This document shows positions 16,747 through 56,659 of a DNA stretch of 64,000 nucleotides, in pieces. The stretch lies in the NCBI GenBank assembly GCA_005884925.1, contig VAYU01000031.1, forward strand, positions 3,548 to 67,547, read 5' to 3'. This stretch comes from Actinomycetota bacterium (GTDB lineage: Bacteria > Actinomycetota > UBA4738 > HRBIN12). The first letter of the stretch is position 1. Every line of letters starts with the position of its first letter. The position numbers were made by a program, and so were the translations under genes. Below the pieces are notes generated by a model that made no database searches, was not told where the DNA came from, and was given only the letters and a program-made list of their open reading frames with translations.

Positions 16747-18185
16747 GGCGTCTCGTCCGAGGCTGGGCGGCGGGGCAGGACCGCGAGGGCCACGACGAAC
16801 GCCGCGGAGAAGCCGGGGATGCTCCCCCCGAGCGCCGAATCACCGACGAGCGGGAACGGAAGCCCGAGCCAACCGTGCACGATGTGCTCGAGGCCGGAGG
16901 TCCACCATCCGACGAGGGTCGTCGGCGCGCACCACTGGAAGACGACGAAGCCGACCACCCACGGAAGGACGGCGCGCCACCGGATCCCCGATGGCGCGCC
17001 GTCGAAGAGCGCCTCCTCACCGAACCGGCCGTGCTCGCGGAGGCCCCAGTCGGCCAGGAACACGGCGAACAGCGGGACGAACACCGATCCGATCAGCAAG
17101 AGGAACCCCTCCAACGTCGCGGCCGCGTCGCTCCCGATCGCTGCCGCGATCGCGAGCCCCGCGGCCCCGACCGCTACGATCAGCGCGCGCTGGGACCACG
17201 CCGGGCGCGCGTTCTGCACGGTGATCGCGGAGGAATAGACGTTGGCCATCGCCTGGTCGGACTCGCCGACCAGGAGCGCCAACAGCACGACCCCGCCGCC
17301 GGCCACGGCGGCGATCGTCGTCCCGAGGTCCAGCACGTCCGTCCCGGATCCCGCCGCCAACACGAGCAGCGCTCCCAGCAGGTAGAACCAGACGTTCCCC
17401 AGCGCGTAGCCGGCCGCGGTGCCCACGAACGCCGCCCGCGGCTCACGTCCGAACCGGGAGTAATCCGCGACGAGGGGGAGCCACGAGATCGGCATCGCGA
17501 TCACGAGGTCCACGCCCAACCAGAATGGCAGCCCGCCCAGCCCGGGACGGGACCAGATGGCGCCGAGATCAGCCCCGGCGAGGACCTTCACGGTGATCCA
17601 GACCGCGACCGCCGCAACGATCCACACGCCGAAGCGCTCCAACCACCTCCGGACGGTGAAGATCGGGCCCGCGAGCGCGAGCGCCGTGCACACGACGGCC
17701 ACGACGAGCATCCAGAGGAACGTCGCATCGAGACCGAACAGATCGACCGAGACGGCGTTCGCGACCCGTCCCATCGCCCAGAACTCGAAGGCCGTCCACC
17801 CGATCAGCTGGACGAGGTTCGCAGCCGACGGAAGATAGGACCCGCGGAGCCCGAGTACCGGGCGGAAGAGCACCATCGATGGGACGCCGTCGCGGGCGCC
17901 GGCGGCCGCGACGAGCCCAAGCGGGACGCACCCGATCACGGTCCCGATCACGATCGCGAGCACCGCCATCGGCAGGCCGAGTCCCGGAACGAGCAACGCC
18001 CCGCTCACCAGGACGAGGAGCCCGATCGACAGGTCGCCCCAGAGGACCGCCAGGTCCAGCCCGGAGAATCGTCGGAGTGCGTCCGGGACGGGGCGGATCC
18101 CCCAGGTGGGCGTCTCGCGTTCGATGGCGTGCTCGAGCCGTTCGGTGACCGATGTCCCAGGTGCGATCGGTGTGATCGGTGTCAT
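16743..18185 (-). CDS. cytX: Purine-cytosine permease family transporter, CytX-like (thiamine precursor HMP)
   Basis: About 12 TMs, GVPSMVLFRPVLG, IGWTAFE, MPISWLPLVADYSR, ANVYS; TPP riboswitch directly upstream. Confidence 0.82.
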   Translation of the reverse strand: MTPITPIAPGTSVTERLEHAIERETPTWGIRPVPDALRRFSGLDLAVLWGDLSIGLLVLVSGALLVPGLGLPMAVLAIVIGTVIGCVPLGLVAAAGARDGVPSMVLFRPVLGLRGSYLPSAANLVQLIGWTAFEFWAMGRVANAVSVDLFGLDATFLWMLVVAVVCTALALAGPIFTVRRWLERFGVWIVAAVAVWITVKVLAGADLGAIWSRPGLGGLPFWLGVDLVIAMPISWLPLVADYSRFGREPRAAFVGTAAGYALGNVWFYLLGALLVLAAGSGTDVLDLGTTIAAVAGGGVVLLALLVGESDQAMANVYSSAITVQNARPAWSQRALIVAVGAAGLAIAAAIGSDAAATLEGFLLLIGSVFVPLFAVFLADWGLREHGRFGEEALFDGAPSGIRWRAVLPWVVGFVVFQWCAPTTLVGWWTSGLEHIVHGWLGLPFPLVGDSALGGSIPGFSAAFVVALAVLPRRPASDETP

Positions 18186-18186
18186 G

Positions 18187-18280
18187 AGCTCCCTCCGCCG
18201 GTCCTGACCGGATCAGGTTCGAAGGGTCGCCGGTTCCGCAACCGGCCTCTCAGCCCGGTTCCACCGGGCTCCCCTGCATC
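18187..18280 (-). ncRNA. TPP (thi-box) riboswitch
   Basis: Minus strand GGGGAGCCC...GGGCTGAGA...GACCCTTCGAACCTGATCCGGTCAGGACCGGCGGAGGGAG, ending 3 nt before the ATG so that the aptamer 3' strand is the SD. Confidence 0.93.
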
Positions 18281-18308
18281 GGTTCCACGCTAGCACGAGG
18301 TCGAGCGA

Positions 18309-53784: not shown

Positions 53785-54348
53785 CTACGGGTGCCCGACG
53801 CGATACGTCAGGAAGACGAAGCGTTCGTCATGTTCGACGGCCTGCAGCGTCAGTCGCTCGGCGCCGAGGCGCCGCGGAAGGAGCGGCGCCCCGGCGCCGA
53901 GCATCACCGGCGCGACCCCGAGCAGGATCTCGTCGAGGAGACCTCGGTCGCCGAACTGGCCCACCAGGTCGCCGCCGCCGACGAGCCAGATGTTCCGGCC
54001 GTCGGCGGCGGCGACCATCTGTTCGTGGATGGGCCCGACATCGCCCCGGACGAACGACAGCGCGGCCGCGGGGACCGGAGGCAGGTCTCGGTGCGTGAAC
54101 ACCCAGCACGGCGTGTCGCCGTAGAACTCGCGCCACTTCCCCGGATCGTCGAGCAGCCCCTCGTGCGCGAGGACCCACTCGTACGTCGTCGCGCCCATCG
54201 CCATCGCGCCGACATCGGCGAAGAAGCGGCCGAACCGATCGTCGGCGATACCGTTCGACGCGGCCTGGAAGAGCCACTCGAGTGAGTTATCCGCATCGGC
54301 GATGAAGCCATCGATGCTGGTCGCCGTGTAGTACTGGGTCTTCGTCAT
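53785..54348 (-). CDS. Dihydrofolate reductase/RibD C-terminal family protein
   Basis: ATSIDGFIAD, MGATTY, IWLVGGG, LLDEI, PVMLGAG. Confidence 0.92.
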   Translation of the reverse strand: MTKTQYYTATSIDGFIADADNSLEWLFQAASNGIADDRFGRFFADVGAMAMGATTYEWVLAHEGLLDDPGKWREFYGDTPCWVFTHRDLPPVPAAALSFVRGDVGPIHEQMVAAADGRNIWLVGGGDLVGQFGDRGLLDEILLGVAPVMLGAGAPLLPRRLGAERLTLQAVEHDERFVFLTYRVGHP

Positions 54349-54713
54349 CCTGAGGGTCGGCGCGCCGAGTGCTCCTGGAGCCGCACCTCGACGATCTTCT
54401 TCACCAACACGGCGGGGATCGGCGCGTCCGCCGGGAAGCGAAGCGTTCCCTTCCCGGAGAAGTACGGCGTGAGCTCGTCGCCGAGCGCCTGCATGACCGC
54501 AGTGCTGGCGGGATAGAGGCTGCAATGGTCCTTGAACGCGGCGTAGGACACCAGGAACCGACCATCCTGTTCGAACGCCGGCATCGCGTAGCTGATCTTC
54601 TCGGTCGCCTGGGGTGCGGCGGCTCCGATCGTCTGTCGGAGCTCCTCCAGCGCGGCGCGCTGCTCATCCGGAAGGGCGGCAAGGTAGTCCCCGATGCTGG
54701 TCGGTGCGGCCAT
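54345..54713 (-). CDS. DUF1801 (YdhG-like) protein
   Basis: IGDYLAALP, EKISYAMP, AAFKDHCSLYP, KGTLRF. Confidence 0.9.
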   Translation of the reverse strand: MAAPTSIGDYLAALPDEQRAALEELRQTIGAAAPQATEKISYAMPAFEQDGRFLVSYAAFKDHCSLYPASTAVMQALGDELTPYFSGKGTLRFPADAPIPAVLVKKIVEVRLQEHSARRPSG

Positions 54714-54894
54714 CCGGGCCTCCTTGTTCGTGGCGCGAACGAGGGCTTCACCCTTTCACGAGGATGCCGGTAGCGTAAGGCCTTGCGTGCCGCCACCCCC
54801 GAGGCGGCAGAGGAGGGGAAGCGGCGGCGATACCTGCCCGTACCTGGGCGGGCTCGATCAGAACATCTACGGCGCGGTCACGCCGTAGATCGCG

Positions 54895-55150
54895 GGATGC
54901 CGAAGGGCCGGGCCCAAACGGGCCCGGCCCTTCGGTTCGCATTCGCCTCTCGAGCACTTCCGCCTCTCTCGAGGCTCGTCCGGTAGACCAGCCGGAACCC
55001 GGAGGTCGGTGAACTGGTGTGGATTCTGCCGGGTCACCCGGCAAAACCGGGCGGGGCGGTGGCCCCGGCCCAAGAGTGACGGCTCAGCAGCCAGTCACCT
55101 CGAGGGTCTCACGCTGTTCATGCAAGCAGGACCACCTCCTTCCTCTCGTG
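54895..55150 (-). ncRNA. Putative structured small RNA carrying a 13-codon ORF
   Basis: Bounded by promoter and hairpin; several internal stems; SD AAGGAGGTG; TTG-started MHEQRETLEVTGC* at 55125-55084. Confidence 0.6.
54900..54935 (-). terminator. 16-bp perfect hairpin ending the putative sRNA
   Basis: CCGAAGGGCCGGGCCC-aaac-GGGCCCGGCCCTTCGG. Confidence 0.75.
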
Positions 55151-55155
55151 CGCAC

Positions 55156-55184
55156 ATGGTGCCGCGGACCCGCGCGTATGGCAA
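55156..55184 (-). promoter_or_regulatory. Housekeeping-sigma promoter of the putative sRNA
   Basis: Minus strand TTGCCA-N17-CACCAT. Confidence 0.55.
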
Positions 55185-55228
55185 CCACCGGCCGGGGCCG
55201 GCCCGGCCGACGCCGGTAGGATGCGCCG

Positions 55229-56659
55229 ATGGCCGCCCCCGATCCCGCCGAGCTCCCGAAGATCATCGATCTGGCGTCGCGTGAGGCTGCGCGGTACCTC
55301 GAGTCCATCGCCGATCGGAACGTGCGTGATCCCCGGGCCGAGGAGGTGGCCGCGTCCTTCCGCGGCGAGCTCCTGGAGGACGGCGTCGGCGCAGAGCGGG
55401 CACTCGAGGAGCTCGTCGCCGGCATCGACGGCGCCGTGCATTCGGCCGGGCCGAGGTTCTTCCACTTCGTGAACGGGGGCGCGACGCCTGCGGCGTTGGG
55501 CGCGGACTGGCTCGCGAGCGCGCTCGATCAGAACACCGGGGCCTGGGTCGCGTCGCCGCTCGGCGGCGAGCTCGAGTGGATCGCTCTGAGCTGGCTGCGT
55601 GATCTGTTCGGATTGCCGGCCGAGTGGGGCGGCGTGCTCACGACCGGCGCCACGATGGCGAACTTCGTCGCGCTCGCGTGCGCGCGCCGGTGGTGCGGGC
55701 TGCGGCACGGTGTCGACGTCGACGATGTCGGGCTGTCGGGGCTGCCACCCATCCACGTGTTCGGCAGCGGGTACGTCCATCCGAGCGACGTGAAGGCGCT
55801 CGGGATGCTCGGCATCGGGCGCGCCCAGGTGCACAAGCTCGCTCGCGACGGCATCGGTCGCCTCGACGTCGAGGCGCTCGATGCCGCGCTCGCGGAGCTG
55901 GACGGCGCTCCATCGATCGTGATCGGAAGCGCCGGCGAGGTGAACGCCGGCGATTTCGATCCGATCGCGACGATGGCCGACCTGGCGGAGCGGTACGGCG
56001 CGTGGTTCCACGTCGATGGTGCGTTCGGGCTGTTCGCGGCGCTGTCGGACCGAACCCGTCATCTCGTCGAGGGCATCGAGCGCGCCGACTCCGTGATCGC
56101 CGATGGCCACAAGTGGCTGAACGTCCCGTACGACTGCGGGTTCGCGTTCGTCCGCGATCCGTCGCTGCAGCCGAGCGTGTTCGGGGAGGGCGCCGCCTAC
56201 CTGCCGGCGTTGGACGACCCCAAACCGAACTGGGGTTACCTCGGTCCCGAGATGTCCCGGCGCTGCCGGGCGTTCGCCGTGTGGGCGACGCTCCGCGCGT
56301 ACGGGCGGAACGGGCATCGGGCGATCGTCGAGCGGAGCCTCGACCTCGCGCAGCGGCTCGCCGCCATGGTGGACGAGGCGGACGACCTCGAGCGCCTGGC
56401 CGACGTTCCGCTCAACATCGTGTGCTTCCGTGCCCATCCGAGGGGCGTCCCCGAGGATCGGCTCGATGAACTCAACCGCAGGATCGCTGCGGCCGTGATC
56501 GCGGACGGGCGGGTGTTCTTCGGGGCGACCGCGTACGACGGGAAGGCGGCCTTCCGCCCGGCGCCGGTGAACTGGCGCAACCGCCCGGAGGACATGGATC
56601 TGATCGCAACGGTGGTTCGGGAGCTGGCGGCAGAGCTGGCTCCGACCCGCTCGTCGTGA
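55229..56659 (+). CDS. Group II PLP-dependent amino acid decarboxylase
   Basis: PRFFHFV, TTGATMAN, AGEVNAGDFD, FHVDGAFG, DGHKWLNVPYDCG, NIVCFR. Confidence 0.92.
   Translation: MAAPDPAELPKIIDLASREAARYLESIADRNVRDPRAEEVAASFRGELLEDGVGAERALEELVAGIDGAVHSAGPRFFHFVNGGATPAALGADWLASALDQNTGAWVASPLGGELEWIALSWLRDLFGLPAEWGGVLTTGATMANFVALACARRWCGLRHGVDVDDVGLSGLPPIHVFGSGYVHPSDVKALGMLGIGRAQVHKLARDGIGRLDVEALDAALAELDGAPSIVIGSAGEVNAGDFDPIATMADLAERYGAWFHVDGAFGLFAALSDRTRHLVEGIERADSVIADGHKWLNVPYDCGFAFVRDPSLQPSVFGEGAAYLPALDDPKPNWGYLGPEMSRRCRAFAVWATLRAYGRNGHRAIVERSLDLAQRLAAMVDEADDLERLADVPLNIVCFRAHPRGVPEDRLDELNRRIAAAVIADGRVFFGATAYDGKAAFRPAPVNWRNRPEDMDLIATVVRELAAELAPTRSS

Follow-up and report, generated by a model that had tools for sequence, protein, structure and literature searches.

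An element on the minus strand of a 64,000-nucleotide (nt) stretch of DNA from an Actinomycetota bacterium (UBA4738; HRBIN12), contig VAYU01000031.1, is, judged by comparison with its relatives, an independently transcribed, single-copy small RNA (sRNA) gene of about 250 nt. The whole stretch is referred to below as the window; coordinates are window positions and all elements of the RNA lie on the minus strand. The RNA is a divergent, order-wide variant of Ms_IGR-5 (RF02471), a homologue that lies beyond the reach of the curated Rfam model. Its strongest constraints are complementarity to the full 3' tail of the 16S ribosomal RNA (16S) and an open reading frame (ORF) that is kept open while its peptide is not conserved, a combination that would indicate a ribosome-directed RNA of an undescribed kind. 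We favour, with a confidence little above even, a working principle based on ribosome engagement and forced refolding of the RNA and not on the encoded peptide.

Homology to Ms_IGR-5 and distribution

At curated cut-offs, an Rfam scan of the 64-kilobase (kb) window gave no match at the locus. Under relaxed thresholds, RF02471 aligned over its full length to positions 54955-55149 with a score of 17.8 bits (E 0.028-0.084), the gathering cut-off of this family being 45 bits; run against the whole source genome, the same model returned nothing at E <= 0.001. A pattern combining the two best-conserved boxes, scanned against a collection of species-representative genomes, returned at least 120 stretches, mostly from Actinomycetota. 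The other labels among the matches listed were Acidobacteriota, Planctomycetota, Latescibacterota, Zixibacteria, Sumerlaeota, Eisenbacteria, Deltaproteobacteria/Syntrophobacter, Binatia, Leptospira and Heliobacteriaceae. Eight of the 20 pattern loci tested with Rfam exceeded the RF02471 cut-off, two of them labelled Acidobacteriota. We built a covariance model, R1, from 60 pattern-scan sequences, leaving out the lineage of the window; seven of the eight loci above the RF02471 cut-off belong to these 60 sequences. R1 matched the 64-kb window once, at 54995-55155, over the full model and with a score of 61.4 bits (E 7.2e-16). It also matched each of 100 loci once, and every tested pattern locus from records labelled with non-actinobacterial phyla. 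The RNA is therefore homologous to RF02471, even though its score with the curated model (17.8 bits, compared with 61.4 bits for R1) stays below the cut-off.

A previous reading of this DNA, made from the sequence only, had suggested that similar elements occur in other actinobacterial intergenic regions, could name no Rfam family for them and proposed an Rfam search as a check. The suggestion was correct. The search itself produced the weak full-length RF02471 match below 45 bits, so the view that the RNA lacks an Rfam family does not hold and its novelty is reduced.

Within the order of the window, R1 detected the RNA in 109 of 151 genomes (69 of the 91 high-quality ones), almost always as a single match. 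In a sample of the phylum it was found in 74 of 151 genomes, with a distribution that was all-or-none by family; the order and phylum tallies include 10 and 6 unpublished genomes, respectively. BLAST searches with a 301-nt stretch recovered the element in 31 of 41 related genomes, a tally that includes three unpublished ones, and once in its own genome, where the only other match was the palindromic hairpin on the opposite strand. Among 14 control genomes, including Corynebacterium glutamicum, the RF02471 model gave no match. The Rfam 'Actinobacteria sRNA' family proves to be a widespread and usually single-copy gene, and, for annotation, the current Rfam model misses whole orders. Weak Rfam matches to ar35, several microRNA precursors and CC2171 were confined to the GC-rich terminator hairpin and were discarded.

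The window RNA shares with Ms_IGR-5, a family founded on the Mycobacterium smegmatis sRNA IGR-5, the same order of a purine-rich 5' box, a mini-ORF, a GAGGUG box, the helices P0 and P2, a GAAUCC motif and CAG-UCACC. It is likewise a single-copy independent gene, and its mini-ORF fits the family range of 11-18 codons, with UUG at +9 after GGAGG and UGA at +15 from GAGGUG. The founding member was reportedly isolated, by Li and colleagues in 2013, through a pull-down with foreign Hfq. No function of Ms_IGR-5 is stated in the literature searched. The M. smegmatis IGR-5 gene is named ncMSMEG15794c (PMC10454040).

The order of the window differs from other members in several respects. The inner helix P2a is replaced by three local hairpins, a difference that accounts for the low Rfam score; the R1 alignment forces P2a onto the window RNA with two non-standard pairs, and in most Ms_IGR-5 members the stop codon lies in the 5' strand of P2a. 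P2 has a bulged base in this order, the mini-ORF starts with UUG or CUG and stops with UGA or UAG, and the window RNA carries a separate 16-bp terminator after P3.

A 16-nt box complementary to the entire 16S tail

The 16-nt box AGGAAGGAGGUGGUCC (DNA AGGAAGGAGGTGGTCC), located at 55129-55144, is an extended Shine-Dalgarno (SD) sequence complementary to the entire 3' tail of the 16S. The 16S of the source genome itself ends with GGATCACCTCCTTTCT, and the box pairs with all 16 bases contiguously, two of them as G-U. The corresponding ribosome-binding site reads AAGGAGGTG, with GGAGG at 55139-55135, 9 nt before the TTG at 55125. The box-16S duplex has a predicted energy of -27.3 kcal/mol, and the 11 bases that are free of any helix claim give -16.4 kcal/mol. 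Only three sites with 16 contiguous pairs exist among 5.4 million genome positions; of the other two, one is antisense to the 16S gene and the other is a GU-rich site.

Constraint on the box was assessed on 25 matches from the phylum sample, which were chosen by the model and not by the pattern; for the other genomes, a 16S tail identical to that of the source genome was assumed. In these sequences, the box carries only A or G opposite a 16S U, with two exceptions at position 1, and always G opposite a 16S C. Pairing over all 16 positions is possible in 23 of the 25 phylum-sample matches and in all 31 sequences from the order. Complementarity to the 16S tail is also found in the 5' strand of P2, whose partner UCACC resembles an anti-SD sequence. 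The sequence-only reading had offered three options, a dual-function sRNA, a ribosome-binding RNA or a micropeptide gene; the tail match and the constraint on the box make the ribosome-binding RNA the best supported of the three.

Covariation supports a pseudoknotted fold

Four helices are common to the family. In the 60-sequence seed, 85.7% of the alignment cells at these helices can pair, compared with 31-44% when the partners are slid, and the covariation score of 0.231 (at most 0.069 with slid partners) was reached by none of 500 shuffles. With 100 sequences aligned to R1, 87.2% of the cells pair and the score rises to 0.362, in an alignment that is fitted to the model and leans towards it. 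The order alignment of 31 sequences has 91.0% of its cells paired and contains 23 pairs that change on both sides.

P0 forms between CGAG at 55145-55148 and CUCG at 55101-55104, the latter forming codons 8-9 of the mini-ORF. Across the family, AU, GC, CG and UA are found at the same P0 pairs, and within the order its variable pair is AU in 16 sequences, GC in nine and GU in six. The 5' strand of P2, GGUGACUGG at 55091-55099, lies within the SD-like box GAGGUGA and within the ORF. It pairs with the anti-SD-like strand CCAG-U-UCACC at 55017-55008, which has one bulged base and is placed by the family model and the order alignment. The terminal pair of P2 occurs in all four Watson-Crick combinations across the family, and one P2 pair in the order is AU in 19 sequences and GC in 12.

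The pseudoknot joins AGACC (55105-55109) to the loop GGUCU (54989-54985) of the inner hairpin of the P3 domain (54996-54979). The outer stem of this domain (55005-54998 with 54955-54946) has eight of nine pairs changing on both sides in the order alignment. At the pseudoknot, 98.7% of the cells are paired in the order, with one covarying pair (CG in 20 sequences, AU in nine). Family-wide, the exact complement of the sequence's own 5-mer was found in the 3' domain in 84 of 143 sequences, compared with 26.9 +/- 4.1 (maximum 39) in a control of 500 permutations in which the 5-mers were swapped between sequences. Taken together, the covariation supports P0, P2 and the pseudoknot as parts of the predicted fold. 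The helix P1, in which GGUC of the box pairs with GACC of the pseudoknot strand AGACC, is an alternative pairing that never varies and is uninformative.

The strength of folding is also above expectation, since a 271-nt stretch folds at -145.2 kcal/mol compared with -118.7 +/- 5.1 kcal/mol for shuffled sequences (n=200; z -5.2), none of which was as good. An RNAalifold fold of 18 close relatives, in which the box is paired, was rejected: the partners it gives the box are invariant, and the evidence from the wider family favours P0, P2 and the pseudoknot instead.

The GAAUCC motif at 55021-55026 is nearly invariant in the family and unpaired, and no pairing partner for it was found within the RNA in the family alignments. 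This motif, together with the independent single-copy gene, its promoter and terminator, and the reported pull-down of the founding member with foreign Hfq, would suit an ordinary trans-acting base-pairing sRNA, possibly a dual-function one, in which an unpaired part such as GAAUCC pairs with mRNAs while the ribosome-binding site and the ORF stabilise or gate the RNA. We consider this explanation unlikely: the strongest constraints fall on the 16S-complementary box and the open frame, neither of which a plain base-pairing sRNA needs, and the neighbouring genes give no hint of a regulon.

The frame of the mini-ORF is conserved but its peptide is not

The predicted mini-ORF (55084-55125) has a UUG start, 13 codons (MHEQRETLEVTGC) and a UGA stop at 55086-55084. 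Its frame was compared in 139 distinct sequences, one of them (L003, also part of the pseudoknot test) from an unpublished genome. An in-frame NUG 7-14 nt after GGAGG, followed by a stop 12-18 nt downstream of the first G of GAGGUG, was found in 138 of the 139, giving ORFs of 11-18 codons. The starts are ATG (51), TTG (50), CTG (21) and GTG (16); the stops are TAG (97), TGA (31) and TAA (10), and in 132 of the 139 sequences the stop is placed at +15 nt, counted from where the GAGGUG box begins. Stops within the ORF region interrupt the ORF frame in five of the 139 sequences and the other two frames in 90 and 127. Members of the order have either UGA or UAG as the stop, at a single position, and an in-frame insertion of 3 nt was seen in one of them. 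The stop codon is held in a small hairpin, GGCU-GCUG-AGCC (55081-55092), seen in the alignments of relatives with UGA or UAG at the same place; it is flanked by GTGAC (55097-55093) and GTCAC (55080-55076).

Conservation does not extend to the encoded peptide. Its initial residues are free to vary, changes in the residue ahead of Glu accompany the covariation of P0, and the peptides across the family are unlike one another (MHEQRETLEVTGC, MYSNRTREVAVS, MQSSDGSCSKRPGEVAET and MSSGNQRWLLQ, for example). Records labelled Planctomycetota (L064, L074, L117 and L133), Latescibacterota (L054 and L083) and Eisenbacteria (L082) read the conserved GAGGUGGCUG bases in another frame and yet retain a short ORF, complete with start and nearby stop.

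These results bear on a micropeptide gene, in which the 13-residue peptide would be the product and the structure of the RNA would only tune its synthesis. The frame, start and stop conserved in 138 of the 139 sequences, a stop codon that changes in identity but keeps its position, and the very strong ribosome-binding site ahead of the ORF all speak for it. The constant residues, at the C-terminus, are read from bases that belong to P0 and P2 and that covary with the bases opposite them; with peptides that are otherwise unlike, a reading frame that differs between phyla and CUG as the only start in 21 of the 139 sequences, we judge this explanation quite improbable. The micropeptide proposed by the sequence-only reading is accordingly disfavoured: the frame is kept, the residues are not, and those that stay constant track RNA pairing. 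Like the dual-function sRNAs SgrS/SgrT, RNAIII/hld and SR1/SR1P, which encode small peptides, the window RNA combines a small RNA with conserved structure and a short ORF, translated in those systems and predicted to be translated here; unlike theirs, where the peptide is conserved and active, the peptide of this family is unconserved and its frame shifts between phyla.

CUG is the sole in-frame start, fixed 8 nt after GGAGG, at L031, L039, L052, L091, L114, L118, L121, L140 and L141. Within the order of the window it is, with the same spacing, the sole in-frame start at L010, L013, L015, L016, L018, L020, L143-L146, L159, L160 and L162. The CUG-only starts suggest either near-cognate initiation or binding without efficient translation.

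A probable independent transcription unit

The whole predicted RNA, of about 253 nt, occupies 54897-55149, from an A at +1 near 55149 to just beyond the terminator hairpin. Promoter geometry and the place of position 1 in the alignment to the Rfam model were used to set its 5' end, and the hairpin to set its 3' end. The -35 box TTGCCA (55179-55184) is recognised by its sequence and by the conservation of TTGnnn, and the -10 box CACCAT, of the nAnnnT type (55156-55161), follows 17 nt later and is also conserved. The arrangement TTGnnn-17 nt-nAnnnT-6-7 nt-A was found in 29 of the 31 order-level sequences, with freely varying bases in between, the remaining two having a shifted register (spacer of 18 or 19 nt). 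In all 31, the -10 box has A as its second and T as its sixth base, and it lies 5-8 nt ahead of the predicted +1 A (6-7 nt in 28 of them). This conserved geometry predicts a transcription start near 55149. A scan of 54300-55700 for consensus sigma-70 promoters and T-run terminators returned none of either, and the promoter call rests on conservation and not on that scan. At the 3' end, a perfect 16-bp hairpin (54900-54935), not followed by a U tract, is the presumed terminator; among 18 relatives in the RNAalifold alignment, its pairing is preserved through many two-sided, compensatory changes.

The flanking genes encode a DUF1801 protein (54345-54713, minus strand) and, divergently, a pyridoxal-phosphate-dependent decarboxylase (55229-56659, plus strand). 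Because clustering of the flanking ORFs was dominated by the spurious long reading frames of GC-rich DNA, a Pfam search of 146 flanking ORFs from 25 loci was used instead. The neighbours differed in every lineage, even within the genus, and were often on the other strand; no recurring neighbour family was found among these loci. Since its neighbours are not conserved, the RNA is not a leader of DUF1801. A cis-acting element controlling DUF1801, either a leader or an attenuator that works in the style of a leader peptide, would account for the presence, upstream of that gene and on its strand, of a short ORF with alternative stems and a terminator-like hairpin behind it. It is extremely improbable given that the downstream gene is different in each of eight order-level loci and often on the other strand, that no neighbour family recurs across the 25 loci, that the hairpin lies about 185 nt away from where DUF1801 starts and that the ORF has no run of codons for a single amino acid. 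The leader-peptide attenuators trpL and pheL and the erm/cat leaders do resemble the window RNA in their strong ribosome-binding site, their ORF of 11-18 codons laid over alternative stems and their terminator-like hairpin; the window RNA differs from them in having no conserved downstream gene and no regulatory codon run, and in ending at its own presumed terminator. The proposal of an independent transcript of about 250 nt instead of a leader, made in the sequence-only reading, is supported by the conserved promoter, the covarying terminator hairpin and the unconserved neighbours.

Published data indicate that homologues are expressed. Ribosome footprints are reported on Ms_IGR-5 homologues in Mycobacterium abscessus and M. 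smegmatis (PMC4974804), the Streptomyces lividans homologue was validated by RNA-seq (PMC8079986), and the Streptomyces avermitilis homologue is described as an sRNA transcription unit with mapped ends (PMC8780764). The M. smegmatis homologue is capped with nicotinamide adenine dinucleotide and is termed 'validated but yet uncharacterized' (bioRxiv 10.1101/2021.12.14.472595). For the organism of the window, we infer both ribosome binding and translation.

Small shares of the stretch queried were also found in 20 sequencing runs, 17 of them recorded as RNA, and contigs of four runs were compared. Two contigs from soil RNA libraries lie entirely within the RNA, one of 161 nt at 54978-55138 (two differences) and one of 102 nt at 55006-55107 (one difference); contigs of this kind show neither ends nor strand. 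Other RNA-library contigs continue into unlike sequence, one of 1135 nt doing so upstream, and hence come from relatives. Most of the flanking genes (54351-54860 and 55218-55800) had no contig, and this lack of cover was not taken as evidence. As a sign of expression these contigs are a weak hint, as DNA may be present in the libraries. The runs X2 and X3 have identical contigs and depths and are probably one data set filed twice.

A predicted cycle of ribosome capture and refolding

Ribosome engagement and forced refolding can be pictured as follows. P0 and the pseudoknot, which joins the bases just before the 3' strand of P0 to the hairpin loop in P3, close a loop that displays the single-stranded 16-nt box and, 9 nt further on, the UUG start. 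A 30S subunit would be captured very tightly at the box by pairing of the 16S tail. Once positioned at the start codon, its leading edge would abut the pseudoknot, 13 nt after the end of that codon. The ORF runs across the pseudoknot strand, the 3' strand of P0 and the 5' strand of P2, and we infer that translation unzips the core of the RNA, elongation opening the pseudoknot, P0 and P2. Termination at the fixed stop would free the ribosome, upon which the RNA would refold and reset.

Several observations weigh against this proposal. Unusually long SD sequences are common in the genome, where 37 sites offer 12-15 contiguous pairs with the 16S tail, mostly of the form GGAGGTGATC; the 16-nt match is thus the end of a continuum and not a unique kind. 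Pairing of all 16 tail bases on a real 30S subunit is a prediction. The RNA was undetected by R1 in 42 of the 151 order genomes (22 of the 91 high-quality ones) and in 77 of the 151 phylum-sample genomes, from which it appears to be dispensable in many lineages. CUG stands where a start is needed in about half of the order and in Acidimicrobiia; because CUG is a poor start, productive translation is uncertain in its carriers. The thermodynamically best fold of the single sequence, at -142.3 kcal/mol, partly pairs the box and is about 11 kcal/mol more stable than the RNA constrained to the family fold (-131.4 kcal/mol). It uses the species-specific CTCGAG repeats, and for this reason we did not adopt it as the native fold. 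Finally, the RNA-library contigs may derive from relatives or from DNA.

By analogy, the RNA could be a start-site mimic, the ribosome's counterpart of 6S RNA, which would park the 30S subunit at the pseudoknot until translation of the mini-ORF frees it. We regard this extension as speculative and rather unlikely. 6S RNA and Ms1 are small RNAs of the abundant type that imitate what a core machine naturally acts on; the window RNA would in this way imitate a perfect start site of translation, and the release of 6S RNA by synthesis of its product RNA (pRNA) could have a parallel in release by mini-ORF translation. The likeness is one of analogy only. The partner of 6S RNA and Ms1 is RNA polymerase and the predicted partner here is the ribosome; there is no sequence or structural likeness, their fold being a long rod with a central bubble and that of the window RNA branched and pseudoknotted. 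The 6S and Ms1 Rfam models gave no match at the locus even at E <= 10. If the RNA were such a mimic, it could control how many free or SD-competent ribosomes are available, for instance by giving leaderless mRNAs an advantage or by protecting the 16S tail in dormancy, and this would hold across Actinomycetota and several other phyla.

Further features of the RNA and the window

The promoter, SD sequence, ORF and stems described in the sequence-only reading were all located where it had placed them on the minus strand. Its stem made of two CTCGAG copies needs correction: the repeat exists, in three copies and not two (55104-55099, 54973-54968 and 54954-54949). The third copy reads CTCG[TC]GAG in most relatives.

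Two further predicted hairpins lie between the mini-ORF and GAAUCC. Hairpin B (GGGCCGGGGC/GCCCCGCCC, 55049-55071) is lineage-specific and covaries in seven of its nine pairs in the order alignment. Hairpin C, UGCCGGG-UGA-CCCGGCA (55027-55043), is seen in the alignments of the relatives and of the order. A tRNA or a transfer-messenger RNA (tmRNA) was rejected as an identity for the element, as ARAGORN found no gene in 54700-55300 and no Rfam tmRNA match was obtained at the locus. The sole curated Rfam match in the window is a thiamine pyrophosphate (TPP) riboswitch (RF00059) at 18173-18285 on the minus strand, with a score of 61.4 bits.

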